A stretch of DNA of 64,000 bases. It comes from Candidatus Gastranaerophilales bacterium. Its GTDB lineage: Bacteria; Cyanobacteriota; Vampirovibrionia; Gastranaerophilales; Gastranaerophilaceae. Positions 18,064 through 50,733 of the stretch are shown here, one piece after another. The position numbers and the translations under genes were made by a program. The notes below the pieces were generated by a model. It had not been told where the DNA came from, did no database searches, and saw only the letters and a list, made by a program, of their open reading frames with translations. The stretch spans positions 22,874-86,873 of the forward strand of contig CALVAA010000008.1 of the NCBI GenBank assembly GCA_944325315.1. Reading direction: 5' to 3'. How positions within the stretch are numbered: position 1 is the first letter of the stretch; each line of letters begins with the position of its first letter.

Positions 18064-18077
18064 AACTCAATTATAAC

Positions 18078-18105
18078 AAAAACCCGCCAACATTAGCGGG
18101 TTTTT
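18078..18105 (-). terminator. rho-independent terminator downstream of the zinc-ribbon gene
   Basis: AAAAACCCGCCAACATTAGCGGGTTTTT. On the minus strand the hairpin CCCGC...GCGGG is followed by a U-run. Confidence 0.75.
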
Positions 18106-18121
18106 ATATATGTTTATATTT

Positions 18122-18391
18122 TTAAGCTTCTTGCCTTTTCAAAAAACACTCTTTGCAGAAAATTTCCTTCCCCTCGCTTGGCTTAAAAGGAACTTTTGTC
18201 TGTGCTCCGCATTGAGAGCAAACAGCATCGTACATTTTTCTTCTGGATTTTTGTCTTCTTGCTTTTCTGCATTCCGGACATCTTTTTGGTGTGTTAACCA
18301 ATCCTTTTTGAGAATAAAATTCCTGTTCTCCTGCGCTGAATACAAATTCTTTACCGCAATCTTCACATACTAGGGTTTGATCTTCAAACAT
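18122..18391 (-). CDS. zinc-ribbon domain protein (duplicated CxxC...CxxC, zf-trcl-like)
   Basis: MFEDQTLVCEDCGKEFVFSAGEQEFYSQKGLVNTPKRCPECRKARR is followed by a second copy, CSQCG...CKEC. The start was chosen at ATG 18391, which has AAGGAGA upstream. The ORF track extends to 18439. Confidence 0.75.
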   Translation of the reverse strand: MFEDQTLVCEDCGKEFVFSAGEQEFYSQKGLVNTPKRCPECRKARRQKSRRKMYDAVCSQCGAQTKVPFKPSEGKEIFCKECFLKRQEA

Positions 18392-18523
18392 TTTGGGTCT
18401 CCTTGCTTTTATAGTGTACTTATCCGACCACTGGTGCAAAAATTCTTTAAGTAATTAAGTAATTCAAGCGCTCAGATAGTTGATTATCTTAATATCTTAT
18501 ACCTTTTTTGCTATTTATGCAAA

Positions 18524-19888: not shown

Positions 19889-19943
19889 TTTATTCCCTAA
19901 ATTGTGTATAGAAATTTTTCCCTATATATATTATAATACACTA

Positions 19944-20345
19944 ATGCTAGATTTTATTTTTATATTTACAATATTTTTGGAAATTGTTTTAACCGTTATT
20001 TGTTCAAAAAAATTAATTGAACTTGAAAAAAAAGTTTCAATAGTTGACAAAAAGTTAAAAACAATTTATACGCTGACATGTGAAATAAACACCAAAATTA
20101 AAGGCACTATAGGAAAAATCAACAAGTTTGTTTCAATAATTACAAATAAAAAGTTAATAAAAATAAGACAAATAATAAAAATCACGATAAATGTTGTCCA
20201 AATTATTATTCTTATAAAATCATTAAATTTTTCAAAAGGATTAAAATCCATAAACTACAAAAATATTAAAAGACTCCTGTTTGCGCAAGGTTTAAGACAA
20301 ATTATTAAAAACATTTTCATAAATTTAAATAAATTGACAACTTAA
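19944..20345 (+). CDS. hypothetical membrane protein
   Basis: The ORF has one N-terminal TM helix (MLDFIFIFTIFLEIVLTVIC) and a second hydrophobic segment. TATAAT (19932-19937) lies 6 nt upstream of ATG 19944. Composition is very AT/Lys/Ile-rich, so coding status is uncertain. Confidence 0.35.
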   Translation: MLDFIFIFTIFLEIVLTVICSKKLIELEKKVSIVDKKLKTIYTLTCEINTKIKGTIGKINKFVSIITNKKLIKIRQIIKITINVVQIIILIKSLNFSKGLKSINYKNIKRLLFAQGLRQIIKNIFINLNKLTT

Positions 20346-20402
20346 AATGTAAAATAATTTTAAATTTTAGCCTTAAAAGAATAATAATGTTAAATTTATG
20401 AT

Positions 20403-20627
20403 ATGAAAGAATTTTTCGATGATGAATTTATAAACAAAAAACTTCTCTGTCGCATGCAAAAAGAAATTAAAAGACAGCAGTTGGAAGTTACCATTGATGA
20501 ATTGAATTACTTAAATGAATTACAAAGTCATATTATATCCAGATGTGATTTTACGCCTTCGCAAAATAGGGAGTTAGACTTTATTAAAAAAGTAAACAAT
20601 GCAAGAAGAAAAAATATACAAGCATAG
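20403..20627 (+). CDS. hypothetical small protein (74 aa)
   Basis: ORF only. It overlaps the next gene by 29 nt. Confidence 0.35.
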   Translation: MKEFFDDEFINKKLLCRMQKEIKRQQLEVTIDELNYLNELQSHIISRCDFTPSQNRELDFIKKVNNARRKNIQA

Positions 20628-23926: not shown

Positions 23927-25396
23927 ATGTATAACTTTTTTAAAAATATTTCGGAAAAAAATTCATGTCAATTAAACGGTGCATGTTCCATACACCCAAG
24001 TGTTAATGCACTTTATCAGGTATTGGCAAACCAAATAAGAGAAATTTCGTTTTATCTTGTTAAATTGAAAGAGTTTAATATTACGGACGAAAACGCAATA
24101 GATTTGTCATTAAAAGGACTATCAATATTTCTTATTAATACAAGCTATAACCAAAAAAAATACTTAGATTTTATATACGATATTTATAGTGCAAAGTGCG
24201 AAATTAAAGAACGCTACAAAAAACACTGCAAAGAAAATGAATTCCCCTGCGAAATTATAGATTCAAATTTTCAATTAAACAAAAATACTACAATATCAGA
24301 ATTAATAAAATATGCACAGAACAATATTGCGATAAAAGAAAAACACGTTGACAAAACAAAGCAAAGACTTTATGAACTAATAACAATTTTCGCCCGTTTG
24401 TGTGCGATTGAAGTTATAAAAATCAAAAAGTTGGATAAAGAATTCAAAGAATACGATTTTGAAATCTTAAGGTTTTTTGCGTTAACTAACAGCTATTCAA
24501 TAAGGAACGAAAAAATTATAAGAAGAATAAAAGAATTTTCGTCTTACGCTCTTATGATTATGAATAAGCTGAATACAATCTATGAAACAAGATACGGCAA
24601 AAAGGAATCCGCAACTCCGGCTACAAATGCATTTATGGGACACTGCATTTTAGTTTCCGGAGACGATATAGACGAACTTGAAAAACTTCTTAAAGCAATT
24701 GAAAAAACAGAGACCAAAGAAGAAATAAATGTTTATACAAACGGCGCATTATTTTTAGCGCATTTTTACCCTTATTTTAAAAATAATAAATACTTAAAAG
24801 GGCACTGGGGAGGAGATAATGCCGAATACGATTTTTCGATTTTCCCGGGAAGCATCCTTATCACCCAAAACTTTATTCAAAAAATTGATACTTTATACAG
24901 AGGTGAAATATTTTCAAATAAATTAATTTCTTTTTCAAAGGTTTTTGATATTACAAATGATAACTATATGCCCTTAATAGAATGCAGCCTCGGCCTTGAC
25001 GGCTTTTTAAAAACAACAGAAAAAACATCTATAAAAGTAAGCTACGACAGGGAAAAAATTCTAAAATTTTTAGAAAACTTTGAGGAGCAGGAAATTATTA
25101 TAATATCCAGCTTTTTAAATGGTGTTGATGTTATAAAAGACCATGAAAACAAAAAAATATTATATTTGAACTGCCCTTTAGAAAATGACGTTTTGGAAGA
25201 ATCGATTAAAATCTTGCAGAAAAAAAATGTCAAAATTACAATATTCTTTGCTCAGTGCAATCTTTCGAGTTTAAATATGCTAATGGCACTATTAGATAAA
25301 AATATTGAGCTTAATATTGCAAACTGTCCGCACTCACTTATAAACCCGCATGTCATTGAATCTTTAAACAAAGACTTTAATGTGAATATAATTTAA
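23927..25396 (+). CDS. hybrid-cluster protein (Hcp/prismane) homolog lacking most cluster ligands
   Basis: GHCILVSGDDIDELEKLL...INVYTNGALFLAHFYPYFK...GHWGG...FPGSILITQNFI aligns by eye with the E. coli Hcp segment GKCILISGHDLKDL...[20 protein letters not shown]...GNYGS...FPGPIVMTSNCI. Confidence 0.65.
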   Translation: MYNFFKNISEKNSCQLNGACSIHPSVNALYQVLANQIREISFYLVKLKEFNITDENAIDLSLKGLSIFLINTSYNQKKYLDFIYDIYSAKCEIKERYKKHCKENEFPCEIIDSNFQLNKNTTISELIKYAQNNIAIKEKHVDKTKQRLYELITIFARLCAIEVIKIKKLDKEFKEYDFEILRFFALTNSYSIRNEKIIRRIKEFSSYALMIMNKLNTIYETRYGKKESATPATNAFMGHCILVSGDDIDELEKLLKAIEKTETKEEINVYTNGALFLAHFYPYFKNNKYLKGHWGGDNAEYDFSIFPGSILITQNFIQKIDTLYRGEIFSNKLISFSKVFDITNDNYMPLIECSLGLDGFLKTTEKTSIKVSYDREKILKFLENFEEQEIIIISSFLNGVDVIKDHENKKILYLNCPLENDVLEESIKILQKKNVKITIFFAQCNLSSLNMLMALLDKNIELNIANCPHSLINPHVIESLNKDFNVNII

Positions 25397-25400
25397 TTAT

Positions 25401-25425
25401 AAGACCTCTCAACTTGAGAGGTCTT
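25401..25425. terminator. bidirectional hairpin terminator
   Basis: AAGACCTCTCAACTTGAGAGGTCTT forms a 10-bp stem between convergent genes, with AT-rich flanks. Confidence 0.7.
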
Positions 25426-25434
25426 AAATTATTT

Positions 25435-28400
25435 TTAATGAGCACCGTTATATATTGCCCTAAATGCAATATCTTGACCTCTTTTATTTGCAACGTAAAA
25501 ATGATTAACAGTATCGTTTAAAACAATATTTGACCCGTTTTTGTTTACAATTCTTTTATTTTTAATCGTATATTCAGCTCCGTCATCAACAAAAGAACCG
25601 TTTTTATAAACTTTTTTCTTTAAAACAGTGCCTTCAGCAAGAGGGCAAGATCCATCCGAATCTGTAAGTTTAATTGAATCGACTGAAACATTTTTTGTTT
25701 GGAATTTTGTTTTGTATGACGGGGTTTTATACTCAAGACCGTTATTTGTGATAACGGAAACTACCTGAGAGCCTTTTTCGTCATAATTATACAATGGCCA
25801 ATAATGCAACAGTTCTTTGTTTTCACTTTCAAATTGATAATATTTTTTGAAAAGACCATCTTTATAAAATTCTATAAAATTTTTCTTATTGCCATTATTT
25901 TCATCTATACCGAATCTGTCTTTTATTGCACCGTCTTTTCCGTCATAAGTTTCGAAAAATTCTTCAAGAGCTTTATAACCCCCGTGTTTTTCTATATTTT
26001 CAATAAAATAATTCATTGCACCATCATTACTTGTTTTTAAAGTCTTTATGCCCTGAACTTCCAAAGGCAATGTAAAGCCACCCCTTAAAGCGCTCATGCC
26101 GGGTTGCTGATATAAACTTGACACAGCAAACATTTTGTCATAAAACGGCTTATACAAAGGATTATCTTTTAGTTCATGCACGATTTGTTCACGGTTTTTT
26201 ACCGTAATATTTTTGCATTTTTCTTCATAACCTGTTTGAGCATATTCCGTACCGTTAAATAAAGTAGGAGTGCCGGGAATTGCATTCATCATCTGCCAAA
26301 GGGAATCAACCCCGTGCATTGAATTTTTCAACAGTTTATAGTTAAATTCAAGCGCAGCATCATCAAGCTTGCTTTCAGAGACAATACCCGCTCTTTTAAA
26401 CATGTCTTTTGCGCTTATTCTATAATCAAGATTTCCAAAAGCCTCAGACCTTGAACGATCAGGCTTGGAATCCGATGTTTTTTGACCTTTTGCAAGTTCA
26501 AGAAGTGCAGCTTTAAGTTTTTCTTTGTCTTTGCCTTCATACTCTTGCTCGATTAAATCATTCATAATAAGCGCAACAGCAATAGCTCTTGATGATATTT
26601 TGTTGTAATCTACATTTCCAAATAAAGCATTTATTCTTTCTTGCTGTTCTTTTTCTAAACCGTTAAAACCTTCTTTTGTGGTATCATTTAGAAAAATTCT
26701 CATATCTAACGGCATAGAATGCATTATACGAGGTTTATCGTGATTATCAACAAACATATGACTCAAAAGAGCGTTATTCGGTTGCACAGAAGATATAAAC
26801 CCAACCACATTGTCTTTTAAAGCTTTCAGATTACCGCTGTTTATAGGTACTCCGTCAAAATTTTCAGGATTTGTTCCAACGAAATTTGAAAGTTTATTAA
26901 AATATTTACTATAATTTGAATTAGCGGTCGCACGTGTTTGTATTATGAAATCTCTTTCTTTTAAGTCAGGATTATATCCGTTATCATCGAAAGTAAACTT
27001 ATCCGTATTATAGAAATCCCATAAATCCGTAAGTTCAGAGATAATATAAGCGGAAGGATTATATTGCCTTACTTTATTACAATAATCTTCCCAGAAACCA
27101 CAAACGGAATAGTCGCCTTTCCAGAACAAATCCTTAAAGTTTGTATTTTGGGCTCTGGCAGAATCAAGATCACCTATATCTTTTGCCGCATCGAATCTCC
27201 AATTTAATCCTGCCTTGCTTTGCAGAACAATTGATTCTGCCAATTTAAAGTCTTCAAGACTAATTTTGGCAAGTTCCTTTTTTAACTGTGCTTCAATTTC
27301 CTGTACACCTGCCCTGTTTAGATTTCTATGCAGTCTTTTAATCACCTGTTTTCTTTCGCTTTCTGGGGTTAGTGCAGGGAAATAATCCAAATTTTTAATA
27401 TTAACTCTTTTTAAATTTTCATAATTCAAAGAACCGTCTTTGTTTATGAGGTTGTCACCCATAGCACTTACATAAATATTTTTTAATATTCTGTTTGCGC
27501 AGGTTTTAACAACGTATGTTTTATATTCATTATTGTGCTTGTATTGCTTAGGAATAACATTTTCTATAACATCGTTTAAAATTAATGCTATTTCTTTTTC
27601 GGTTTCTTCTGTTAAAAATTCTTTTTTAAATTCACTCTGGGCAAAAACAGCGCTTAAATCGTCCCCTGTTTCAATAGACTGCAAAGGAAATTCCTCAATA
27701 TAGTCATTTATTGTTTTATTTTGCTCCAATACGGGATATTGTGATTCATCTATAGAAGATTTAATTTCTTGATAATCTTCCTGTGAAATATCGTTGTTTA
27801 AAGCTGTTTTTTCCTTTTCTTTGTCGCTCATTTGAGCAGTTCTGTATATTAAATCTGATTGGATTGCTTCTGTCCAATAAGTTGCAATCCCGAGCAGATA
27901 TTCTCTTGCTTTTTGAGTGCCTTTTATATCTTCTATGTTTGTTCTGTCAGGATTGGAAAGATTAAATTTAACCATATCACGGTTACCATCCCAATAAGAA
28001 GCGCCTCCGGCATCGTTTCTTTTAACAATTGTAAAATTATCAAAATCTAAAAATTTTTTCTTGCCCATTCTTATTTCATACAAATAAGCCGAGTTTCTGT
28101 CTTTAAACTCTGCCATCCTTTGAGGCATTGTCAAAGGATCAATTTCAAAATAAAAAGGATAGGCCGAATCTTCATTCGAAATTATATCGTAATGGTCTTC
28201 TATGTTTTTATCATAAGCTTCTATAAGTTTTGTTGAATCATTGATTTGTTCTTCGCTTGCAAGACGATCATCAAACAATTGGAAATATGTAGGTTGTGAA
28301 GCGTCATATTTCACTCTGTCGGCCGGATTATTAACTATTCTGACACCGATATGATCTTCAGGCGGATCATCATCGTCTTCTTTTCTTGATTTTGGAATAA

Positions 28401-29259
28401 GCCCCAACTGGGGTTTACCTTCAATTTTAAATATATTAAACCAGGGAGATGCCTGCCCCCATTTTAAAACATGCTGAATTAATGGAGATTGTATACTTTG
28501 AGATGTGAAAGCACCATCAGCTACATATCCTTTACCTCTTTTATAAAGCTCAAAATTAAAATCCTTAAAGTCATTTAAATCTGAACATTGGTATAAATTG
28601 CAAGGCCAATATTTATGGCTTGAAATTTTGTCTACTCCAATATCCGGAGTTGTAATAATATATCTGTAAGGGTCAAGAATGTCTGTTTGTTTAAGCATTA
28701 AAAGCAAGCCCTTAACACTGCCTTTAAGCTTATTAAAGTGATTTCTTACAAAATCTTTATCAGCATTTAAATTTAATTTATTATTTACTATAATTGCGTC
28801 GGAATCTATAAAACTGTGGCGCATTGTTCCGGCTTTAGGGGTAACTTCGTAATCTTTCCCTGCTTCAATGACATTTAATCTTTCACTTGAATCTTTAAGA
28901 GGGATAGTTTCGTATGAATCCGTGACATATTTCACGCTTCCGTCATTGGATTCAATTCTGTAACGATATGCAATTCCCTTTCCGCCGTTTTTGAAAGTTT
29001 CATTTGGCAAAAGCAAAGGTTCAAAAGCATAAAATTCTGCTTCTTGAAGTTTTTCTTGCGAAGGATTTTCAAGACGATTGGTTTCTTCATCAGTTTCCAA
29101 AAAAGTGTATTCCAAAAATACCCTTTGAGTTTTATCGTTATAAGGAGGCGGAACAAACTTTACAACAGGCACGTTGTTTATATCGTAGCCGCCTTTTACC
29201 CCTTTAAAATTTATTTTTTGCAGTTTTGAATTTCTAATTTTGTTTACCGATAAATCCAT
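25435..29259 (-). CDS. giant (1274 aa) divergent GH13-family alpha-glucan-active enzyme
   Basis: GH13-like regions are present: GYVADGAFTSQ (region I position), LNWRFDAAKD (region II, nucleophile Asp), IISELTDLW (region III Glu) and MFVDNHDKPR (region IV). No signal peptide is evident. Confidence 0.7.
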   Translation of the reverse strand: MDLSVNKIRNSKLQKINFKGVKGGYDINNVPVVKFVPPPYNDKTQRVFLEYTFLETDEETNRLENPSQEKLQEAEFYAFEPLLLPNETFKNGGKGIAYRYRIESNDGSVKYVTDSYETIPLKDSSERLNVIEAGKDYEVTPKAGTMRHSFIDSDAIIVNNKLNLNADKDFVRNHFNKLKGSVKGLLLMLKQTDILDPYRYIITTPDIGVDKISSHKYWPCNLYQCSDLNDFKDFNFELYKRGKGYVADGAFTSQSIQSPLIQHVLKWGQASPWFNIFKIEGKPQLGLIPKSRKEDDDDPPEDHIGVRIVNNPADRVKYDASQPTYFQLFDDRLASEEQINDSTKLIEAYDKNIEDHYDIISNEDSAYPFYFEIDPLTMPQRMAEFKDRNSAYLYEIRMGKKKFLDFDNFTIVKRNDAGGASYWDGNRDMVKFNLSNPDRTNIEDIKGTQKAREYLLGIATYWTEAIQSDLIYRTAQMSDKEKEKTALNNDISQEDYQEIKSSIDESQYPVLEQNKTINDYIEEFPLQSIETGDDLSAVFAQSEFKKEFLTEETEKEIALILNDVIENVIPKQYKHNNEYKTYVVKTCANRILKNIYVSAMGDNLINKDGSLNYENLKRVNIKNLDYFPALTPESERKQVIKRLHRNLNRAGVQEIEAQLKKELAKISLEDFKLAESIVLQSKAGLNWRFDAAKDIGDLDSARAQNTNFKDLFWKGDYSVCGFWEDYCNKVRQYNPSAYIISELTDLWDFYNTDKFTFDDNGYNPDLKERDFIIQTRATANSNYSKYFNKLSNFVGTNPENFDGVPINSGNLKALKDNVVGFISSVQPNNALLSHMFVDNHDKPRIMHSMPLDMRIFLNDTTKEGFNGLEKEQQERINALFGNVDYNKISSRAIAVALIMNDLIEQEYEGKDKEKLKAALLELAKGQKTSDSKPDRSRSEAFGNLDYRISAKDMFKRAGIVSESKLDDAALEFNYKLLKNSMHGVDSLWQMMNAIPGTPTLFNGTEYAQTGYEEKCKNITVKNREQIVHELKDNPLYKPFYDKMFAVSSLYQQPGMSALRGGFTLPLEVQGIKTLKTSNDGAMNYFIENIEKHGGYKALEEFFETYDGKDGAIKDRFGIDENNGNKKNFIEFYKDGLFKKYYQFESENKELLHYWPLYNYDEKGSQVVSVITNNGLEYKTPSYKTKFQTKNVSVDSIKLTDSDGSCPLAEGTVLKKKVYKNGSFVDDGAEYTIKNKRIVNKNGSNIVLNDTVNHFYVANKRGQDIAFRAIYNGAH

Positions 29260-29303
29260 AGCTTTTAATCCTATAACTTTAAATTTCCCTTTACAAGACT
29301 TTT

Positions 29304-31229
29304 TTAACCTTTAGTAAAATGCTTTTGCTGAATAATATTTTCTTCTTTTGAAAGTTTTTCTATATCCGCATCATCAATTTCAAACACACAAGCTCTGCTT
29401 GCAGGCATTTCAACGGTAACACTGCCGTCTTTGTTGTTTTGAAATTTGCATTCATCTCCATATTTTGGCATTAAATTATTAAATTTCTGCTCCGGTTTCA
29501 AGCCCGGAATAGTTACTTTTGCTCCGACTTTTTGGTTAACATTTCTATTTCCGATAAATAACAGTGTTTTTCCGTCTTTATGTCTTGCAAATGCAATTAC
29601 TTCGGGGTTATTTGTCGGAAGAATAATAAATGAACCCTTGGTTATAACATCCTGAGCATTGTTCATCTCAAGTTTAATGCCGTTATTTAGCTCATTATAT
29701 CTGTTATCTCTTAAGGCAAATGCGGATTTAACAATCTTCGAAATTTCAGGAAAATCACCGCCCGGTTTTCTGGATTTGTTGAAAATATCCATTCTGCCCG
29801 TATGAACCGTGCATTCATGATTATCGGTCAGCGTATCTCTTACAAGCGCATGGTCATATGGATAAATATAATAGTCGCCTGTCTGTAAACCATCGGTTAA
29901 ATAAGGATTAACCTGAGGCAACATGCTCTGCAAAATCGTAGTAAACATTACCCAATTTGCTCCGCCATAAAGCATAGGAGACTGATCATCATGGGTTGCA
30001 AAAGAGCCTATTAATGATTTAGGACCTGTTTTTGCTCCTATCTGATTGTTCATATCAATATTTTCTCTGACATAATCATAAAGCTGGTCTGCCTTTGTCC
30101 AATCATTAAAGATGTGATATTGACCGTAATAGCTGTCAAAACCAACTTCAAGAAGCTCTTGAGGTCTGTCATAAGGCATATTCAGCTGCGGAGATGCATC
30201 TTCATGGGTGTATGTTTCAGCTAACATCGCAAACTGCGGATCTTTGGACCTGACATAATTACTTAAAATATACCAAAATTCAACGGGTTTCGCCCTTCCT
30301 ACATCGGCTCTCAAAGCATCTATTCCAAGTTCAAGATTAGAGTCAAAGTATTTTTTGTGCATATTAAGAAGCGGTAAATTCAACTTTCTTGTTTGTTCGT
30401 CTTCAAAAGGACTAAACATTCTTATATCCTGCCAGCCTTGCGGAACTTTTTCTTTTCCATCGGGACCCATTGCCATCAATTCAGGATGTTTTTTTGCAAA
30501 GTCAACACTGGCACATGAAGGCAAGTCAAGCATTACTTTAATATTGCGCTTGTGGCATTCATCAATAAAATATTTAAATTGGCTAAATCTTACATCCGGA
30601 TCATTTTTGTCCATTTTTATAAGTTTTTTGCCTGTTTTTTGTTCATATATTTTTTCAATTTCAGTTCTTGCCTTGGGGTTTGGATTTTCATCTACAAGCT
30701 CAGGGTCAATAGCTAAGTCCCCGTTGTCTTCAATAAATTTTTCAGGAGCATAGAGCGAACCTGCTGTTCCCATTGCCTTCATTTTTCCGGTAGGATGTAT
30801 GGGGAGCAGATGAAGCATATTAAAGCCTAAATCTTTAATTTCATCTAATCTTTCAACATCATTTACAAAATTGCCGCTTACTTCATCCCCTTGTATTAAT
30901 CCGTTTCCGTCTTTATCCTGAGCATTCATTGTCCTCAATATAACCGCCAAGATATTTGCCTGATTGTTTACAAACATATCCCTTGCGTTATTTCTATAAG
31001 GCTCAACGCTTTGATTTTCAGAAACACCATTGGCACGGCTGGTAGCATTTACAGGGAGAATCTGTTTAGAATTCGCAAGAACGGTCTGCTTTAAAAGGGG
31101 GCTGTATTGAACCTTTTTAGCGGTTTGTTGTTGCATCGGCGACTCTTTTTTAACCTCTTTATTTTGATAAACAGGATTAACACCTAAATTTCTTGCCAAC
31201 ATTGGACTCATTATAGTATTTGTTGTCAT
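29304..31229 (-). CDS. GH13-family enzyme with GlgE-like (maltosyltransferase-type) motifs
   Basis: Contains GFNMLHLLPIHPTG, KVMLDLPSCASVDFAKKHPE, GIDALRADVGRAKPVEFW, FAMLAETYT and FATHDDQ. The pattern resembles the GlgE motifs DFALQCSPDH, FRVDNPHTKP and LAEAFT. No signal peptide is evident. Confidence 0.7.
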   Translation of the reverse strand: MTTNTIMSPMLARNLGVNPVYQNKEVKKESPMQQQTAKKVQYSPLLKQTVLANSKQILPVNATSRANGVSENQSVEPYRNNARDMFVNNQANILAVILRTMNAQDKDGNGLIQGDEVSGNFVNDVERLDEIKDLGFNMLHLLPIHPTGKMKAMGTAGSLYAPEKFIEDNGDLAIDPELVDENPNPKARTEIEKIYEQKTGKKLIKMDKNDPDVRFSQFKYFIDECHKRNIKVMLDLPSCASVDFAKKHPELMAMGPDGKEKVPQGWQDIRMFSPFEDEQTRKLNLPLLNMHKKYFDSNLELGIDALRADVGRAKPVEFWYILSNYVRSKDPQFAMLAETYTHEDASPQLNMPYDRPQELLEVGFDSYYGQYHIFNDWTKADQLYDYVRENIDMNNQIGAKTGPKSLIGSFATHDDQSPMLYGGANWVMFTTILQSMLPQVNPYLTDGLQTGDYYIYPYDHALVRDTLTDNHECTVHTGRMDIFNKSRKPGGDFPEISKIVKSAFALRDNRYNELNNGIKLEMNNAQDVITKGSFIILPTNNPEVIAFARHKDGKTLLFIGNRNVNQKVGAKVTIPGLKPEQKFNNLMPKYGDECKFQNNKDGSVTVEMPASRACVFEIDDADIEKLSKEENIIQQKHFTKG

Positions 31230-34200
31230 TATTTAGTGCCTCCTTTTTCCCCTTCTTCAGGAAATTCTTTTTTGATATTTCCAAACAACGGCTGTACAAG
31301 AAGCGTTGTTGCAACTAAGACTGCCGCCATAGGAGCAAATATTTTCAACCAAGATTTATTATTATATAAGCTTGTTGCATACTTTTGTGCAAGGCTGTTT
31401 AAACTTGGATTTCTCAAATATTTTCTTGTAGCATTTTTTAGCTCTTTTGAACCGTTGGACTTAACAAAATCTTCATCTATTTGAACAAGAAGGTCTTTAA
31501 CATGTTTTTGTATAAATTCAGGCTCATTCTTAAATGCTTCCGGGTCATACAAGGATTTCATAAGCTCAACAAAGTTTATATCTGCAATACCGGCTTTATT
31601 ATTAACCGCAGCAACATTTCCTTGATAAATTAAATACTTTGCGGCGCTTAAAAGTTTTTCTTCACCCGGCTTAGTTATATCTTTATTGAATGGTCTAATT
31701 TTTCCTTCTTTTAACCTTGCTTCAAAATTAGCACAAATTACCGGCCTTGCCACAATAGCTTCAATGTTTGTTTTTTGAGCTTGAATGTAATTTTGTATTA
31801 CATTTATCATCGAGCCGTCTTCACTGCCTAAAAAGGCTCTATTAAGAACTTTATCTCCGGCCGGTAAACCTTTTGCGATATTCTTGGATGCTCTCATAGC
31901 ATCGTCTATAAGGCCTTCACTCGGGCATTTTTCCAATGGTCTTAATAGTTTTTCAACTAATTGATGGTATTCCTTTGAATCGAATTCAACATCCGCTACA
32001 AGATTTTTAAAAAATTCACGCAAATTTTCATAACAGTATTCGTCTGTAGTCATTGTAATTCGTTCTAATAATTCTTTTTCAGATTTTTTCACAAAACCGA
32101 GTTTGTTAAATATATTGTCCATTACTGCAAAATATGTCCTTGTATAACCGGATTCTGCCCTGCTTCCTACTATAGGATTAACTGTTTTTAGATATTCTTT
32201 TACATTTCTGCGTAAAGGAACAACAAAATCCATATTGTAATTAAGGATATACTCTTTAAAAGAGTCCATATTTACATTAACTCTTCTTAAAAGATCGTCT
32301 ATTTGACTTTTTGAAAGGTCAAATTCGGATAATTTTTCCTTGACAAGCATAGGCGAAGGGTTTAATCCAAGGCTTTTTATAAATTCCGATATCTTTTCTT
32401 CGCTTGCAGGTTTTTTTACAACCTTAAGATCTGCCATATCCCTTATTGTGTTTTTAATAGTTTCAGGCGTACAGCTATCATCTATTGCTTTTATATATCC
32501 GTCAATTGCCTGTTGATATTTTGCATTATTTTGCTCTATTGATTTTCTCCAAGCCTTCAGTTTTGTTTTCAGTTCTTCAAGGCTAACATTATCCTTCATT
32601 GCATTAACAAATTTGATAACGTGTTTTTCTCCTTCTGTCGGCTTTTCAATGGTTTTCAAAGAATCAACCAAAGATTCATAAGTATTTTTACCATCCATTA
32701 TATCCATGCATCTTCCGATTGCGTTTATATTTGTGTCAGTATTGGAAGACAATGTTTTTTGCCAATTCTGTAATCTTTCTTTTATTTGTCCGAGACTCAT
32801 ATCGTCTTTTATTGAAGATACAAATTTAGCAATATTTTTGCCTCCTTCAGGCTGATTTTGCGCATCGGTAAGTAATTTTTTGAAAGCTTCGGTTGGTACA
32901 AAGTTTTTATCCACTGTATCAATAAAATTATTTACCAAAGTATCATCTCTTAAAACAGCAGAACCTGAAAATTGTTTTAGACCCTGTAATTTTTCTTTTA
33001 TCTGTTCAAGAGTCATATCATCTTTTATAGAATCGATAAATTTTATAATATCCTCCTGGACACAAGACTGACTCGATAATCTGAGTTTTGATTTAATATT
33101 TTCGCTGCTTAAATCTTCTCCTAAGAATTGCATAAATCTTTCTATTTCAGCTTTTCCTCTTTGAGGCAAAGGTTTATTTGCCGAAATATTATTAAGAGTT
33201 TTATATCTTGTTGTAAGGAGTTCTCTAACTTTTTCTATAGTAGGATTTTCGCCTAATGCATCTGTTATGGATTTAATATCTTCTGCTTCAAGGTTTATAA
33301 GCATGTCTTTTTGGAAAGCCTTATTTCCGGAACCAAAAATACCGCTTTTCGGAATTGCTTTTGTAACGGAAAGGTTTTTTGAGTGTTTACGTGGCTTTGT
33401 TTCAACAATATTTACCCCTTGAAGTTTTTCTTTTAAATCTTTTGCATCAACACTTGCTCTTCTTCCATAAACTTCTTGAAGTGCATCTGCAAGATTTCCC
33501 GAGTTAAATGCTTGTATTGGTTTTACATCATCTAAGCTTCTGAAGTCATTTGAAAGGTCGCCGACATATAAAAGCTGCGCAAGCTCATCAAAGAATTGCT
33601 TATCTGCCGGCTTTGAAGATGAAGAATAACTGTCAATTAATTTTGCGATTTTTCTTTCATTGTGAAGTTCTTTTTTGTGTAAACCAACTTTGTTGGTCAA
33701 AGCAAGAGCTTTATCCTTAATTGCATCTTTTGCTATATCAACTTTCGTTCTGTTACCGTTGATTCTCCTTGAAGCAACCTTTATATCATGTTCTGTTACA
33801 ATATCCCTAACTTTAGGCTCAATAAAGTTTCCGAATAATGAAGTCATCAAAGGAGTTGCAAAACCTGCCGTTGCCATCCATAGCGTTCTGTTTTGAAGGG
33901 CGGTTTTTCTACATTTTTCACGTTCTTTTTCACCAGTAATACCGGTAGCATCCCACACGATAAATTGGTTATCCAAGTACAAGTCTTTTTTATCGCCCTG
34001 AGCACTTATATATTTTTTACCTATATCAACTTTATGAACTAATTTTGCAGGTAAATTAATAAACAGCTTGGGCCACAGAGCCATTGATGCAAAAAATGCA
34101 CCACCGCCTATAAACTGCATTAAAGCTTCTGTCTTGGTTTTTGCTTTTGTTGCCAAGTAAGAAGCAATTAAAACACCGCCTGCCTTCATGCCTAAGTCAT

Positions 34201-34483
34201 TTATGCGTCCTAAATTATTATCGCTCATCTTACCGGTTTTAACAGCTTTAACAAAATTAACGCTGTCGCTTCCGACACCCTTTATGGCACTTACACCTGC
34301 TTCTAAAAGATTTTCATCCACCAATTTTGCTTTTGGTTCATTTGGTTTAACCTGATTTGCTTTATTAGTTAAATCATTGTATATTTTTTCGTGCTTGTTT
34401 TCGGTTTCTTTTTTATTTTCCAAAAAAGCCACATTTTTTTGATTATTCAATCTGTCTTGTAATACGGGACTTATAACTTTCAT
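31229..34483 (-). CDS. 1084-aa membrane-anchored protein of unknown function with internal repeats
   Basis: The long ORF shares 1 nt with both neighbouring genes. Hydrophobic helices lie at about aa 100-143, 200-220 and 1046-1066. A motif of about 20 aa recurs six times between aa 403 and 720. Confidence 0.7.
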   Translation of the reverse strand: MKVISPVLQDRLNNQKNVAFLENKKETENKHEKIYNDLTNKANQVKPNEPKAKLVDENLLEAGVSAIKGVGSDSVNFVKAVKTGKMSDNNLGRINDLGMKAGGVLIASYLATKAKTKTEALMQFIGGGAFFASMALWPKLFINLPAKLVHKVDIGKKYISAQGDKKDLYLDNQFIVWDATGITGEKEREKCRKTALQNRTLWMATAGFATPLMTSLFGNFIEPKVRDIVTEHDIKVASRRINGNRTKVDIAKDAIKDKALALTNKVGLHKKELHNERKIAKLIDSYSSSSKPADKQFFDELAQLLYVGDLSNDFRSLDDVKPIQAFNSGNLADALQEVYGRRASVDAKDLKEKLQGVNIVETKPRKHSKNLSVTKAIPKSGIFGSGNKAFQKDMLINLEAEDIKSITDALGENPTIEKVRELLTTRYKTLNNISANKPLPQRGKAEIERFMQFLGEDLSSENIKSKLRLSSQSCVQEDIIKFIDSIKDDMTLEQIKEKLQGLKQFSGSAVLRDDTLVNNFIDTVDKNFVPTEAFKKLLTDAQNQPEGGKNIAKFVSSIKDDMSLGQIKERLQNWQKTLSSNTDTNINAIGRCMDIMDGKNTYESLVDSLKTIEKPTEGEKHVIKFVNAMKDNVSLEELKTKLKAWRKSIEQNNAKYQQAIDGYIKAIDDSCTPETIKNTIRDMADLKVVKKPASEEKISEFIKSLGLNPSPMLVKEKLSEFDLSKSQIDDLLRRVNVNMDSFKEYILNYNMDFVVPLRRNVKEYLKTVNPIVGSRAESGYTRTYFAVMDNIFNKLGFVKKSEKELLERITMTTDEYCYENLREFFKNLVADVEFDSKEYHQLVEKLLRPLEKCPSEGLIDDAMRASKNIAKGLPAGDKVLNRAFLGSEDGSMINVIQNYIQAQKTNIEAIVARPVICANFEARLKEGKIRPFNKDITKPGEEKLLSAAKYLIYQGNVAAVNNKAGIADINFVELMKSLYDPEAFKNEPEFIQKHVKDLLVQIDEDFVKSNGSKELKNATRKYLRNPSLNSLAQKYATSLYNNKSWLKIFAPMAAVLVATTLLVQPLFGNIKKEFPEEGEKGGTK

Positions 34484-35487
34484 TATGCCACCTCGTATTC
34501 TTTTTTAGTATCAACTTTAGATGTCATTTTATTCGGGTTGTGCTTAAAGGCAATTGTAGGAATCAGCCAGCTTGATAGTGTTGAGGCAATTGAGGCAAAT
34601 ATTAACGCTTTACCGTAATGTTTTGTCACAAGATTTCTATCATTACCTTTCCATAGTTGTTTAGCGGAATCTTTAAAAGCATTTTTAAGAGATTCGAAAG
34701 GCCTTCTGAATGTAAGGCCCGAAAAACCCTTTTGTACCCCAAAGGCAACGCCTAAAGCAGCAAGAATATACTTGTTAACATTTTCTAAAGCACATGAACG
34801 AGCTTTCAGCTCTCTTATTTTATCGTCCATAGTTTGCGCGGGGCAGTTTAATTTATTTTTAAAACCGGCCTTTTTAGCTATTTTATCATTATATGCATTA
34901 ATATCACCATGGTTTAACTCTGAATCTTTACTTAAAAGATCTTTTCTAAAGAAGTTAACGGAATCAAACACGCCAGGGTACTGTACTCTTACAATTCCCT
35001 TTTCCTGTCCGGGTTCGGGGAGTTCTTGTTTTTTATTTATATAACGCATATTTAAATCAACACCTGTTGAAGCATGGATAAGAGTTCTTGAAAGCTTTTG
35101 AGATGCCCATTTGCCGATACCGTATAAAACAACTCCCGCCCCAAAGCATTTGGCAGCACTTCTTGCACAGGATGCATCACTGTCTAAAAATTTACGGTTT
35201 GCAGCCGAATACAAAGCAATTAATGTTGCGCTTCCGACAATATATGGAACCATACCCAAGGATAAATATTCGTAAAAATCACTGTTTTTAGAACCGGCAA
35301 ATCCTTTTGGAAAATAGGTTAAAAAATCGTTATAAAGCTTGTGTGCTCCGGCCTTAACCCCCGATAAAGGACCTTGCTTATAAATGTGTGATTCGTTTTT
35401 GTAAAATTCTTCTTTTTTCTGCTCTTTTGAGGTATAGTAGCCTATTTTGGGCAAATTTTCTATACTCGGACTTTTTATTTGTTGCAT
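34483..35487 (-). CDS. multi-TM membrane protein of unknown function (paralogous to the N-terminus of the 1084-aa protein)
   Basis: The start was chosen at ATG 35487, which has GGGGTGA 4 nt upstream. The ORF track starts at TTG 35502. The protein has 3-4 hydrophobic helices, and its stop overlaps the next start (ATGA). Confidence 0.65.
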   Translation of the reverse strand: MQQIKSPSIENLPKIGYYTSKEQKKEEFYKNESHIYKQGPLSGVKAGAHKLYNDFLTYFPKGFAGSKNSDFYEYLSLGMVPYIVGSATLIALYSAANRKFLDSDASCARSAAKCFGAGVVLYGIGKWASQKLSRTLIHASTGVDLNMRYINKKQELPEPGQEKGIVRVQYPGVFDSVNFFRKDLLSKDSELNHGDINAYNDKIAKKAGFKNKLNCPAQTMDDKIRELKARSCALENVNKYILAALGVAFGVQKGFSGLTFRRPFESLKNAFKDSAKQLWKGNDRNLVTKHYGKALIFASIASTLSSWLIPTIAFKHNPNKMTSKVDTKKEYEVA

Positions 35488-35652
35488 TTTCACCCCAAAC
35501 AACTATCATATATATAAACAACACTAAATTTAAAGTTTTGCCTTTTGTCTTAAATATTCTTTACAATAATTAATAGAGTAAATTTTACACCTAATTTTGC
35601 AATTTTTTGCTTAAACTATTAATTTCAACACGACCGGAGAACATTTTACCTA

Positions 35653-35681
35653 TTGCAAATAATGTTAAAAATTTTTACAAT
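35653..35681 (+). promoter_or_regulatory. sigma-70-type promoter (TTGCAA-17-TACAAT) 6 nt upstream of the ATG
   Basis: TTGCAA lies at 35653-35658 and TACAAT at 35676-35681. The ATG is at 35688 with no SD. Confidence 0.5.
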
Positions 35682-35687
35682 ACTAAT

Positions 35688-38003
35688 ATGACTCAAGGCT
35701 TTTTTCAATTTAATGATTCCATTATAAATCAAATCTTAAATTTTGTCACATCCTCTTTTGACTTACTCTTTATGAGCGGTGAAAAAGGAACATCAAAAAG
35801 CGAGATAATGGAAAAAGTGTCTTCTAATCTAAGCGAGAACAATTTGGTATTTACGCATTTTTGTTTTGAAAACACGGTAATCGACGATTTTTTGTTAAAT
35901 TTTTATGATGCCTTGAGAAGCTTTTCTCTGGCTTCTAAAATATCTTTGAAAAAATTTGCAACAAACAATTTTAAAGAAAAAGTAAGTCATTATTTTAAAA
36001 CAATTGATGCCAATTGCGTTATAATAATCGAAAATTTTGAAAAAATAGACACAAATGTTGAAATAGTTGATTTTTTATCTTATCTTGCAGGGTATAAAAA
36101 CGTTAAAATAATTATTTGCACAAGGAACAAAGACAGAAACCTTTTCCGTTTTAAAAAAATAAGAATGCAAACTATTAATCTTAATCAAATTGAAAAAAAT
36201 GAATTCAATTCACATTTAAGCATATTACTTGGTCCTGTTGAAAGTGAGGTTAAAGAAAAATTTTACGAAATAACATCAGGCCTGGAACTTTATCTGAAAA
36301 TGAGCATTAAATACTGTAATACAACAGACACTTCAATAAAAGATTTAATTGCGGAATTTGAAAGAAAAAATATGTCTTTTGAAGAATTTTTAGTTTTAAA
36401 ATTCACTTCTTTAACACCAAGTGCTTATCAAAATATTTTCAAAATACTTTGTATGTTGGATCATCCCGTAAGTATAAATTTTCTTAACGCATACAAATTA
36501 GGAGATATCAGTCATATCGAATATCTTGAAAAAAACTTTTTGATCAATACCTTCGGAAGCGAAATATATGTCAAGGATTATTTTAGAAAACACATTGTAA
36601 AAACTTTTTCAATTCAGGAAAAAATTAACTACTGCAAAAAATTAAATTCAATATACGAAAATGAACTGACAAAAAGCCCCAAAGACAGGCTTTTAAGGCT
36701 TTCAAGAGAATCTATAAGAAAAGAAATTGACCGGTTCAATTCTATTATGCCAAATATCAACTCATCAAAAAGTCAAAACTCATTTTCCTATATAGGCTTT
36801 TCACAAAAACATTGGCACAATAAAGAAGATGAGCAAAAATCAAAACTCACAGAAAAGCTTGCAAAAATTAAAGAAAGAAAAAATTTTCTGGCAAAAGAAA
36901 AAGACAGAATAGTTTTTCCAAAAAAAAGCGAAATATTACAAAAAAATGAAGACAAAGAAATATCCAAACGCTTTATTATAAATCTTATAAATTCTTCAAG
37001 AGACTTAACAAAACAATACCGATACAGAGAATCCATAAAAGAGCTTTTAAGAGCATATGATGAGGATGACAGTGATGAGTTTAAAATTGAAATTTTAACT
37101 TTAATCGCAAAAAACAATGAACATCTAAACGAATACATACTTGCCCAAAAAAATTATGAAGAAGCGCTTGAAATTGCAAACAAAACAAACGACATAAGGA
37201 AATGTGAATTGCAGTTTTTAATTGCAATGACAAATAAGAATCTTTTCAAAATTGACTTAGCAAAAGAAGATTTTCATCAAATTGCGTACAACAAAAGCAA
37301 CCCTGTAAGCTACAGGGCAAAAGCATACATTGAACTTGGCGAAATTGAACAGGCAGATTCAAAAACAGATGCCGCAATTAAATGTTATAAAAATGCTGTT
37401 TCTTTGGCCTTAGGAAAAAGCAAAGAATTAGTTTGCCGCTGCTATTATCTTTTAGGGGTGTTGTATGATGAAAACCAACAAATCGAAGAGGCAATTCAAT
37501 ACTATCAAAAAAATTATCTGACAAGTTCCGAACGATATGAAAACAAATACTATTCAGCTTCATGCGTTAATTTAGGCTTAATATATTTCGAACAATCGAA
37601 ATACCGACAAGCAAGCGAAGCTTTTAAACTTGCTCTTTTATACGACAGTGAAAATAATGACTGGGAAAATATGTATATTTCACAAAAAGAGCTGGGGAAA
37701 ATATACCTAATAATTGACCCTACAAGCGCTGTCGGATACTTTAAACAAGCCTTGGACAGTGCGTACAAATTAAATGATATTTTTAAAGCTGCCCTTGTGT
37801 ACTTTGAAGCGGGAGAGCTTCAATACGACAGGGGGCAAGATGAAAAAGCGCTGGAGTGTTTTTTTAATGCAAAAGAAATTCTAAAAAACGACCCCAACGA
37901 TGAAAACATGTCCAGAATAAATTCAAGAATAAAAGATATAGAAGTTCGCCTCGGAAGCACCACCTTTAATTTAATAGCGGAAAAGTATGATAAATCAAAA
38001 TAA
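35688..38003 (+). CDS. P-loop NTPase-like (STAND-type) protein with C-terminal TPR repeats
   Basis: Contains a deviant Walker A (SGEKGTSKSE) and a Walker B-like segment (CVIIIENFE). The C-terminal 330 aa or so hold repeated TPR-like units (AxxxYxxAL..., YYLLGVLY, LGLIYFEQSKYRQASEAFKLAL). The ORF track begins at TTG 35607. Confidence 0.65.
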   Translation: MTQGFFQFNDSIINQILNFVTSSFDLLFMSGEKGTSKSEIMEKVSSNLSENNLVFTHFCFENTVIDDFLLNFYDALRSFSLASKISLKKFATNNFKEKVSHYFKTIDANCVIIIENFEKIDTNVEIVDFLSYLAGYKNVKIIICTRNKDRNLFRFKKIRMQTINLNQIEKNEFNSHLSILLGPVESEVKEKFYEITSGLELYLKMSIKYCNTTDTSIKDLIAEFERKNMSFEEFLVLKFTSLTPSAYQNIFKILCMLDHPVSINFLNAYKLGDISHIEYLEKNFLINTFGSEIYVKDYFRKHIVKTFSIQEKINYCKKLNSIYENELTKSPKDRLLRLSRESIRKEIDRFNSIMPNINSSKSQNSFSYIGFSQKHWHNKEDEQKSKLTEKLAKIKERKNFLAKEKDRIVFPKKSEILQKNEDKEISKRFIINLINSSRDLTKQYRYRESIKELLRAYDEDDSDEFKIEILTLIAKNNEHLNEYILAQKNYEEALEIANKTNDIRKCELQFLIAMTNKNLFKIDLAKEDFHQIAYNKSNPVSYRAKAYIELGEIEQADSKTDAAIKCYKNAVSLALGKSKELVCRCYYLLGVLYDENQQIEEAIQYYQKNYLTSSERYENKYYSASCVNLGLIYFEQSKYRQASEAFKLALLYDSENNDWENMYISQKELGKIYLIIDPTSAVGYFKQALDSAYKLNDIFKAALVYFEAGELQYDRGQDEKALECFFNAKEILKNDPNDENMSRINSRIKDIEVRLGSTTFNLIAEKYDKSK

Positions 38004-38622
38004 TATTGAAATTTTAAAAAACGAACTTAATTTTAATACCAATGACAAGACAAAAGAAAAACTTAATCTTTGGGAAGACTTTTTCGTTGAATACAACTCT
38101 CATACGAACTTAATGAGCAAGAAAGATGTTGACGTTCTTTTTGAAAAACATGTTTTTGATTCACTTGCAATTTTAAAATGGAAAAAATTTAAAAACTTTA
38201 GAAGAATACTGGATGTGGGAACAGGCGGAGGCTTTCCCGGAGTTATACTTGCGATTTGTTTTCCTTCCGTTGAAATTATTGCAAATGATTCAAGGATTAA
38301 GAAGATTAATTTTATTAAAGAAATAAAAGAAAAACTAAAATTAGAAAATTTATCCGTACTTTATTCAAGAATCGAAGATGCCCCCAAACAAAATGCCGAT
38401 TTAATTGTGTCAAGAGCAGTAGGAAAAATGATAAACGTTTATGAGGATTCTAAAAAGCATATTTCATCCAAAGGCAGTTTTTTAATCTACAAATCAAAAC
38501 TAAAAGATGAAGAAATGCAAACATTCAAAGCAAAATATAAAGATGCAAAATTTGAAGTAATACCTTATAAATTACCTTTAAAGGAAAATTACGAAAGAAA
38601 CCTTATTATTCTAAAAAGCTAA
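37987..38622 (+). CDS. rsmG: 16S rRNA (guanine527-N7)-methyltransferase
   Basis: Contains FEKHVFDSL and ILDVGTGGGFPGVILAI, and the 211-aa length is typical of GidB/RsmG. Confidence 0.88.
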   Translation: MINQNNIEILKNELNFNTNDKTKEKLNLWEDFFVEYNSHTNLMSKKDVDVLFEKHVFDSLAILKWKKFKNFRRILDVGTGGGFPGVILAICFPSVEIIANDSRIKKINFIKEIKEKLKLENLSVLYSRIEDAPKQNADLIVSRAVGKMINVYEDSKKHISSKGSFLIYKSKLKDEEMQTFKAKYKDAKFEVIPYKLPLKENYERNLIILKS

Positions 38623-39284
38623 ATACTTTCCCTTACAAGCCTAATCATTTCCACAAAACGTTTTGATAATTCAACTTGCGAAATTCGCATCTGGCGGGCA
38701 ATTTCTGTTTGATTATATCTTCTTATATATCTAAAGGAAAATATTTCCCAATAACGTTTTTTAGGAAATTTTGCATCCACTGCTTTTACTATATGCATCA
38801 ATTTTTCAACAGTGTAGCTTGAAACTCTTTTTTGCGGGCAAAACTCAAGAGGATCTATAAGCATATCCGATAAATCATATTTCTCGCTTCTTTGAATCTC
38901 TTCTTTAAGATTAACTATTTGTTCTTTTGCACTGTACATTCTAAATTCTTCGTCTAAAGAAGCACTGTCATTTAAAGGAGTTTTTTTGATATTTACAATA
39001 TCATCTTTTAATTTTGATTTCTGTTCAATTTGTTTATAAAGCTTTGTTTGATCAAATTTCTGTTTCTCTTTTAAAATTTGATCCATGCAAGAATCACATA
39101 TTAAAAGCAAATGGCGTCTTAACCTTGCTTTATCTCTTATAGCATCCATTAATAAATAAGATTTTTTATACACAGCTTCAAAAAAAAGCTCCATTAGCTC
39201 CTCATTGCCTTTAAACTTGGGGCTTTCTCTGATGATTGACTCAATTAAAACTCTATGGTCATTATTAATTTGCAATTTTTTCAT
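38619..39284 (-). CDS. sigma-70 region-4-like HTH protein (atypical sigma factor or regulator)
   Basis: The C-terminus YWEIFSFRYIRRYNQTEIARQMRISQVELSKRFVEMIRLVRE resembles sigma region 4.2. The rest of the protein does not match regions 2 or 3 clearly. Confidence 0.45.
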   Translation of the reverse strand: MKKLQINNDHRVLIESIIRESPKFKGNEELMELFFEAVYKKSYLLMDAIRDKARLRRHLLLICDSCMDQILKEKQKFDQTKLYKQIEQKSKLKDDIVNIKKTPLNDSASLDEEFRMYSAKEQIVNLKEEIQRSEKYDLSDMLIDPLEFCPQKRVSSYTVEKLMHIVKAVDAKFPKKRYWEIFSFRYIRRYNQTEIARQMRISQVELSKRFVEMIRLVRESI

Positions 39285-50721: not shown

Positions 50722-50733
50722 GAAAGACTATAA

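Follow-up and report, generated by a model that had tools for sequence, protein, structure and literature searches.

A lineage-specific gene cassette of the Gastranaerophilales combines two paralogous, putative membrane proteins of new families with highly divergent GH13 enzymes

Within a stretch of 64,000 nucleotides (nt) from a Candidatus Gastranaerophilales bacterium (assembly GCA_944325315.1, contig CALVAA010000008.1), referred to as the window in the following, four minus-strand open reading frames (ORFs) run head to tail, which are named A (34483..35487, 334 amino acids (aa)), B (31229..34483, 1084 aa), C (29304..31229, 641 aa) and D (25435..29259, 1274 aa) in the order of their transcription. 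The DNA is a scaffold from a gut metagenome, and the bacterium, a relative of the cyanobacteria that does not photosynthesise, belongs to the Melainabacteria/Vampirovibrionia. Proteins A and B are likely membrane-associated and constitute new families with no known fold within the libraries searched; C and D represent new, highly divergent branches of glycoside hydrolase family 13 (GH13). Genes A, B and C form an obligatory core, to which D is added as a clade-specific accessory gene, and the cassette as a whole is specific to the Gastranaerophilales and related low-GC Melainabacteria. As a tentative reading, to which we give somewhat less than an even chance, A and B may provide a membrane scaffold that keeps a GH13 enzyme acting on maltosyl units on the cytoplasmic side, where alpha-1,4-glucan would be turned over. 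An original prediction, made from the letters of this DNA, had described the four genes with the same ORF coordinates as an undescribed module, and no account of the cassette was indeed found in the curated libraries (Pfam, NCBIfam) or in the literature on glycogen, GH13 and amylases of Gastranaerophilales and Melainabacteria. Its homologues are annotated just as 'hypothetical protein [Candidatus Gastranaerophilales bacterium]', and identical copies of all four proteins occur on ENA and Logan contigs.

The case for a functional unit starts from the conservation of the gene neighbourhood. Using the A profile on one genome per GTDB species, 38 loci were recovered, all of them from Gastranaerophilales, Melainabacteria or unclassified metagenome-assembled genomes, and their gene order was determined by tblastn. 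Genes A and B are adjacent in 37 of 37 of these species loci, and all 35 loci that reach D show A-B-C-D collinear on one strand. A second scan with a divergent subgroup of A against JGI and ENA metagenomes, in which the ORFs were searched by hidden Markov models (HMMs), added 32 loci of 29-39% GC, whose A proteins are only ~20-45% identical to the one studied here. Even at this distance, B immediately follows A in 31 of 31 loci that extend far enough, and C immediately follows B in 23 loci as well as in L006. Thus, A-B-C are adjacent and collinear in all ~60 related loci of sufficient length, with A diverging to ~20-30% identity, with the exception of one short contig, L059, and the junctions between the three genes overlap or nearly do so also in distant clades. 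Gene D behaves differently: in the second scan it follows C in four loci (L047, L048, L050, L051), accompanies B-C in L046, stands alone in L045 and is missing from the remaining divergent loci. The flanks vary likewise: next to the divergent cassettes lie housekeeping genes without relation to it, which encode GatB, the citrate transporter CitMHS, aconitase, FeoB, ribonucleotide reductase, RadA and a peptidase of the M23 type. Since the A-B-C linkage is kept while the flanks and D vary, the selected unit is A-B-C. The linkage of A/B orthologues to a GH13 gene, on which the original prediction depended, is hence found in every long-enough related locus except L059 in the form of C, but the conserved core of the proposed four-gene unit is A-B-C, as D is missing from many clades.

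Enzyme C can be placed with some precision. A single-sequence search of the PDB already retrieves GH13 enzymes (4gkl at E 4e-11, GlgE at 3e-9), and a profile of 17 orthologues sharing 45-72% identity matches, over the catalytic barrel, the alpha-amylase 4gkl (E 1e-23), the maltodextrin glycosyltransferase (maltosyltransferase) of T. maritima (1gju, E 1e-20), an alpha-amylase of Lactobacillus plantarum (3dhu, E 1e-18) and GlgE (3zss, E 7.5e-15; also 5cgm), which together form the clade nearest to C. Residues R307, D309, E338, H413 and D414 are invariant in the 17 orthologues and align with solved GH13 enzymes, so that the Arg and Asp of region II, the Glu of region III and the His-Asp of region IV, and with them the nucleophile and the acid/base residue, are kept. 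Region I reads DLPSC instead of the canonical D..NH. Its Cys239 is invariant and aligns with the Cys in DFALQCSPD of GlgE, where a Cys likewise takes the place of Asn-His. In addition, the segment RADVGRAKPVEFW of C aligns with FRVDNPHTKPVAFW of GlgE; the KPV.FW segment after the nucleophile agrees with GlgE. The likeness has its limits: GlgE ranks only fourth among the matches, the alignment starts at GlgE residue 249 versus profile position 125 of C, the N-terminal domains of GlgE are absent from C, and treS, pep2 or glgB neighbours are missing. Moreover, C differs from the entire 4gkl/GlgE clade in that it gives no match to PF00128 of Pfam at E<=0.1, bears its SP[ILM]L peptides, one or two in number (see below), on a low-complexity linker and is always encoded after two membrane-protein genes. 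Weak, sub-threshold Pfam matches to Malt_amylase_C and Alpha-amylase_C concern its C-terminal domain, and its N-terminal extension of ~75-95 aa is variable and of low complexity. Judged from these features, C belongs to the amylase/maltosyltransferase/GlgE clade with its catalytic residues intact and is not a canonical amylase. No hydrophobic N-terminal segment is present in C or D, and C is predicted to reside in the cytoplasm, like the intracellular enzymes of its clade. GH13 motifs without signal peptides had been reported for both proteins from the outset, and the invariant catalytic residues and non-hydrophobic N-termini agree with this description.

The nearest solved relatives of D belong to another part of GH13. 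A D profile matches Nostoc NPDE (2wc7) at E 1.2e-14 and, besides this, 30 further GH13 chains, with subfamily E-values from 1.2e-14 to 1e-9. The top 20 PDB profile matches are all NPDE, neopullulanases, cyclomaltodextrinases, TVAII and maltogenic amylases, as represented by 2wc7, 2z1k, 1ea9, 1j0h and 1sma. In an alignment of 28 D sequences, R688, D690, E742 and D841 never vary and H840 is conserved to at least 90%, which provides the GH13 catalytic residues alongside the similarity to solved structures. A region V-like MVKFN resembles the MPKLN signature of the neopullulanase group in the classification of Janecek. Yet, region I (VADGAFTS) and region II (WRFDAAKD) lack the two canonical histidines, and D departs strongly from the typical ~580-aa neopullulanase architecture of N domain, barrel and C domain. 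It is more than twice as large and contains two conserved insertions at ~290-450 and ~470-680 (~160 and ~210 aa) as well as long N- and C-terminal domains; the PDB matches accordingly fall into three or four short stretches with hundreds of unmatched residues between them. Protein D itself has no match in Pfam or NCBIfam, and PF00128 (Alpha-amylase) is reached by one of 28 family members, which is not the D studied here. D is an accessory, aberrant GH13 enzyme related to the neopullulanase/cyclomaltodextrinase/NPDE group, whose catalytic residues are intact and which is expected in the cytoplasm as are its relatives.

Proteins A and B proved to be far more enigmatic. Comparison with Pfam and NCBIfam yielded nothing consistent, A/B profiles against the PDB sequences gave nothing below E 0.04, and PADLOC returned no match for any of A-D. 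An AlphaFold2 model of A based on a deep alignment is confident (pLDDT 85.8, pTM 0.78); that of B has a pLDDT of 74.6, with high values for residues ~100-370 and ~720-1070 and low ones for the repeats discussed below. Foldseek found no PDB structure similar to either model at E<0.001, with TM-scores of at most ~0.2, and no similar entry to the A model in BFVD at E<0.001. The profile and structure searches that had been suggested as a check thus matched no known transporter or scaffold family, and the initial failure to recognise a domain in A or B is shared by Pfam, NCBIfam, PADLOC, the PDB profiles and Foldseek. In an exhaustive search of 1.84 billion representative proteins with the A-profile HMM, only 136 clusters were retrieved, which makes A a narrow family. 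Nearly all of these clusters contain A-like proteins of 330-430 aa or their fragments. One match of 815 aa (P0473) turned out to be an unrelated repetitive protein and was discarded.

The two proteins share their general layout. Protein A contains a small alpha/beta domain with the motif ...ES.DF.R.DLL in addition to four hydrophobic helices that are conserved. A small conserved alpha/beta domain is attributed to B as well. In B, the hydrophobic helices lie at about residues 93-115, 118-146, 199-221 and 1043-1072, and an inserted, all-helical domain of ~800 aa separates the third from the fourth. Both feature a small beta-hairpin domain after the second hydrophobic segment, and the hydrophobic segments of A and B occupy equivalent positions. 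An hhalign comparison gives E 3e-4 with a probability of 39% over 168 collinear columns, and out of 73 B ORFs, the A-family HMM recognises 13, with E-values of 1e-5 to 5e-9 that refer to the set of locus ORFs. Some A variants even carry an insert in the same loop between transmembrane (TM) segments TM3 and TM4 that houses the large domain of B. Taken together, these sequence comparisons identify A and B as distant paralogues, a relationship that the original prediction had not noticed. Its designation of both as multi-TM proteins is justified with regard to the four conserved hydrophobic segments, but the fourth alone is strongly hydrophobic (KD19 ~1.8-1.9). The C-termini are conserved separately: A ends in a near-invariant ...VDTKKEYEV[C/A] tail (34483-34512, minus strand) with a terminal Cys as the usual form, and B in a different conserved tail, QPFFGKIKKEFPEE....

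With 1084 aa, the B of this genome exceeds the 740-900 aa of typical orthologues because of a repeat expansion (32324..33292, minus strand; approximately residues 398-720) of about six helical units of ~70 aa, for which the pattern ..I.KF[IV]..[IM]KD.[MV][ST]L..[IL]K.[KR]L.. was read from the sequence. The number of repeats seems to evolve quickly. A faint Pfam match to VMAP-M1, obtained for one of 24 members and confined to the repeat expansion of this genome, was not accepted as an identification of the B domain. Likewise, a docking domain common to B and D was dismissed at an hhalign probability of 0.2%.

A further connection, between B and C, is a short peptide near their N-termini. In B it reads ISPVLQDRL (residues 4-12; 34448..34474, minus strand), and in C it occurs as IMSPMLARNL (residues 6-15; 31185..31214, minus strand) and again in the linker as VQYSPLLKQTVLA (residues 40-52; 31074..31112, minus strand). 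Across 92 B sequences, residues M1, S5 and P6 reach a conservation of at least 90%. Expressed as the motif [SN]P[ILMFVA][LIM] within the first 20 residues of B and the first 70 of C, and counted in the clade to which this DNA belongs, SP[ILM]L-type peptides are found in 39 of 40 B and 36 of 39 C proteins (17 of the 39 C orthologues have two copies) compared with 1 of 38 D, 3 of 41 A and ~1% of other ORFs; among 58 ORFs of the window, only B and C carry the motif. The codons differ between the peptide copies, which indicates selection at the protein level and rules out a nucleotide-level cause. A similar N-terminal string had been noted in three of the four proteins; for B and C it is robust, for A it is weak. 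The N-terminus of A, MQQIKSPSIENL, is conserved within its own family. Between clades, the N-termini of B and C seemed to vary together in anecdotal matches, for which no claim is made (p = 0.19, see below).

Gene organisation is compatible with joint expression. The stop and start codons of A and B at 34483 and of B and C at 31229 overlap by one nt as proposed, except that the junctions are not of the ATGA type but read TAATG, in which the stop TAA and the start ATG have one A in common. Genes C and D are separated by the expected 44 nt (29260..29303, minus strand), which contain the Shine-Dalgarno-like TAGGA of D and no terminator-like site. Similar strings precede the other starts (GGGGTGA for A, GAGGTGG for B and AGGAGG for C). 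The start of A is the ATG at 35487 (MQQI), which is the choice of gene callers and of all orthologues, which begin with MQQ; an alternative TTG at 35502 would extend the ORF to 34483..35502 and 339 aa. On the downstream side, the hairpin that had been placed at 25401-25425 is present as a perfect 12-bp stem at 25400..25426 between the convergent ends of D and a Prismane-family gene, and is likely a bidirectional terminator. Upstream, the assumed divergent promoter region (35488-35687) shrinks to an intergenic gap of 119 nt (35488..35606) common to A and a divergent P-loop/TPR gene. Promoter-like hexamers are at chance level (43 versus 38.7 +/- 6.0 in shuffled sequence), and hence no promoter can be named in the gap. 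Judging from this arrangement, A-D constitute a single tightly packed unit that is probably co-translated. Its GC content equals that of the surroundings (~32% for the stretch), and no paralogues of A-D were found elsewhere in the window.

Genomic context also makes an alpha-glucan substrate inside the cell conceivable. As stated originally, glgA, glgB, glgC, treS and pep2 are absent from the window (ORFs of at least 150 aa), and no treS, pep2 or glgB neighbours were detected in the related loci either. The window is nonetheless not devoid of classical glycogen genes, as a canonical GH13 gene of the GlgX/isoamylase debranching type (1077-3302, minus strand, 741 aa; CBM48, Alpha-amylase and Isoamylase_C) is located ~22 kb from the cassette. 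Melainabacteria possess glgC, glgA and a GH57 glgB and lack a GH13 glgB (bioRxiv 10.1101/2021.06.18.448987). In view of these glg genes and the isoamylase-type gene, an intracellular alpha-glucan appears to be a plausible substrate.

The following model may account for these observations. Proteins A and B would most likely form a heteromeric, membrane-embedded scaffold, to which C could be docked, directly or through a common partner, by the SP[ILM]L peptide on its flexible linker. There, alpha-1,4-glucan such as glycogen or maltodextrin would be trimmed or transglycosylated on the inner side of the cytoplasmic membrane. Maltosyl units are conceivable as the currency of the reaction; the nearest solved relatives of C (4gkl alpha-amylase, maltosyltransferase of T. 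maritima and GlgE) work on such units or transfer them. In this clade, D may be expressed alongside as an additional, accessory enzyme of glucan processing. What we infer here comprises the formation of a complex, the topology in the membrane, the substrate and the direction of the reaction, as well as the attributes 'membrane-tethered' and 'synthesis or remodelling' of the original prediction.

Several observations weigh against the scaffold model. Operon linkage alone is no proof of a common pathway. In one locus (L059; 2683-4149, plus strand), A and a short B of 548 aa are followed by two ORFs without a Pfam match that are not C; a fault of assembly or a frameshift may account for this apparent exception. 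Of the four hydrophobic segments of A and B, three are only moderate (KD19 1.1-1.5). The Lys/Arg density is flat over the loops, so that a topology prediction by the positive-inside rule is uninformative and the 800-aa domain of B could be periplasmic. The N-terminus of A fits the peptide motif in just 3 of 41 cases and a looser pattern in 14 of 41. The peptide as such is not conserved beyond this clade; B and C of other clades share other strings (TNLIQ/TNLIA, ANPYIQ), and when 10 clade representatives were subjected to a permutation test, their N-termini did not co-vary significantly (p = 0.19). Finally, C and D both lack the canonical active-site histidines of subsite -1, for which reason substrate and reaction type are not readable from homology.

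The uncertain topology leaves room for a more ambitious arrangement in which glucan is made and exported. Here, C would be a GlgE- or maltosyltransferase-like polymerising transglycosylase, A and B would serve as a conduit with the B domain in the periplasm, and the glucan would be delivered to the envelope, as in a GH13-based counterpart of synthase-dependent polysaccharide secretion. This would fit the region I Cys and the KPV.FW segment of C, which resemble GlgE rather than hydrolytic amylases, the four TM helices, which with the N-terminus inside would place the TM3-TM4 loop in the periplasm, the diderm organisation of the organism with a BamA/Omp85 gene in the window, and the obligatory, housekeeping-like presence of the cassette throughout the lineage. 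It is still considered unlikely: the best matches of C are the amylase 4gkl and the maltodextrin glycosyltransferase and not GlgE, whose ~250-aa N-terminal domains it lacks, no treS, pep2 or other gene for maltose-1-phosphate supply lies in the window, the A and B models are unlike known channels or transporters, and the loop of A equivalent to the B domain is rich in Lys and Arg, which is atypical of periplasmic loops. The most novel version, in which A and B represent a new class of membrane machinery that links the GH13 transglycosylase C to the membrane for both the polymerisation of alpha-glucan and its translocation across the cytoplasmic membrane, with the 800-aa domain of B working in the periplasm, seems unlikely as well. 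Transport in the opposite direction must be considered as well, i.e. that A and B are a new importer of maltodextrin or alpha-glucan and that C and D degrade the imported oligosaccharide inside the cell, in analogy to the widespread association of maltodextrin transporters with an intracellular cyclomaltodextrinase or neopullulanase. Such catabolism would suit the intracellular neopullulanases, cyclomaltodextrinases and NPDE that are nearest to D, the missing signal peptides of C and D, and the starch and glycogen fermentation predicted for gut Melainabacteria (PMC3787301). With four weakly hydrophobic helices each, however, A and B do not resemble any transporter fold, be it ABC, MFS, PTS or another, no binding-protein or ATPase gene is linked to them, and D, the most catabolic-looking component, is dispensable in many clades; uptake is thus a rather improbable explanation, too.

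Conceivably, the genes are merely expressed together, with A and B serving an unrelated function in the envelope while they share an old operon with soluble enzymes of glycogen turnover. The peptide would then reflect a constraint on both B and C, imposed for instance by a chaperone or by the initiation of translation, instead of docking. The co-variation of B and C is not significant (p = 0.19), and the TPR/rsmG pair and the Prismane gene illustrate that long-lived synteny without a functional link exists in this lineage. Yet, the adjacency of A-B-C has outlasted a divergence that scrambled every flank, and its junctions overlap or nearly overlap even in distant clades. The peptide, moreover, occurs at variable offsets, is duplicated in the linker of C and is encoded by different codons, all of which argues against an effect at the level of the mRNA or of initiation. 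We regard joint expression without a complex as unlikely. A last option is that the GH13 proteins act as non-enzymatic partners in the manner of the SLC3 heavy chains 4F2hc and rBAT, the best-known precedent of a GH13-fold protein paired with a membrane protein. The absence of the canonical histidines in both C and D could be seen in this light, but neither family varies in its nucleophile Asp, acid/base Glu, transition-state Asp or Arg. This invariance over wide divergence makes a role as dead scaffold very improbable indeed.

Comparison with known systems underlines the unusual composition of the cassette. In maltodextrin and cyclodextrin utilisation loci, an intracellular GH13 enzyme is encoded together with a membrane transporter, and such loci resemble the cassette in combining membrane-protein genes and signal-peptide-less GH13 genes in one predicted transcription unit. 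In contrast to such transporters, A and B are paralogues that belong to no transporter family or fold, and neither a solute-binding protein nor an ATPase accompanies them. In the SLC3-SLC7 amino-acid transporters, a GH13-fold heavy chain is paired with a membrane light chain, which likewise unites GH13-fold and integral membrane proteins; the SLC3 partners, however, are inactive ectodomains with a TM segment of their own, whereas C and D keep their catalytic residues and have no TM segment. Although GH13 enzymes rank with the carbohydrate enzymes that have been studied most thoroughly, two dedicated membrane proteins are, to our knowledge, not the obligatory genomic companions of such an enzyme in any other bacterial system.

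Several neighbouring genes deserve mention. Divergently from A lies a gene (35607-38003, plus strand) whose 798-aa product has a P-loop (GEKGTSKS) at the N-terminus, TPRs at the C-terminus and a match to TPR_MalT below the threshold (3e-4); this product may be a STAND-like regulator or a peptide-binding partner. The gene overlaps rsmG (37987-38622) by 17 nt. It is syntenic with the cassette in ~35 of 38 species of the clade and absent from the divergent loci. On the other side, a gene for a Prismane/hybrid-cluster-family protein of 489 aa (23927-25396, plus strand) aligns to positions 8-315 of the 513-position Pfam model and may encode a truncated or divergent member. Neither the TPR/rsmG pair nor the Prismane gene was retained as part of the unit, as they are syntenic in this clade only and absent from all divergent loci. 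In L054, a 1251-aa protein with a double zinc ribbon, AAA_16 and TPRs is encoded 2 kb downstream of A-B-C (16832-20587, plus strand); its resemblance to the P-loop/TPR neighbour may be a coincidence. Two further ORFs have no Pfam match (15976-18063, minus strand, 695 aa; 38619-39284, minus strand, 221 aa), the latter of which is conserved beside rsmG in related contigs and appears sigma-region-4/HTH-like at its C-terminus by eye. A flagellar run (48952-54023, plus strand) with fliF, fliG, an unassigned ORF of 326 aa at the place of fliH and a gene for a fliI-type ATPase is consistent with a motile Gastranaerophilales bacterium. A defence system or a mobile or phage origin of the cassette was rejected given the lack of PADLOC and BFVD matches, its single copy and its conserved chromosomal position in the clade.

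Taken together, a pairing of GH13 enzyme and membrane proteins has been kept throughout an uncultured lineage of Melainabacteria from the gut and the environment. The enzyme families C and D, in which the catalytic triad is kept and canonical histidines are missing, one of them with ~400 aa of insertions, are relevant to the classification of carbohydrate-active enzymes and to enzyme discovery. There is a minority chance that the cassette represents a categorically new membrane-coupled glucan machine. If the export arrangement were true, A/B and C would be without precedent as a system of polysaccharide export that is driven by GH13 and needs no synthase, and they would provide a model for the unsolved delivery of cytoplasmic alpha-glucans to the cell surface. 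If A and B tether or channel the enzyme, the cassette would constitute a new way to organise alpha-glucan metabolism at the membrane and would assign roles to four families that are now listed as 'hypothetical protein'.

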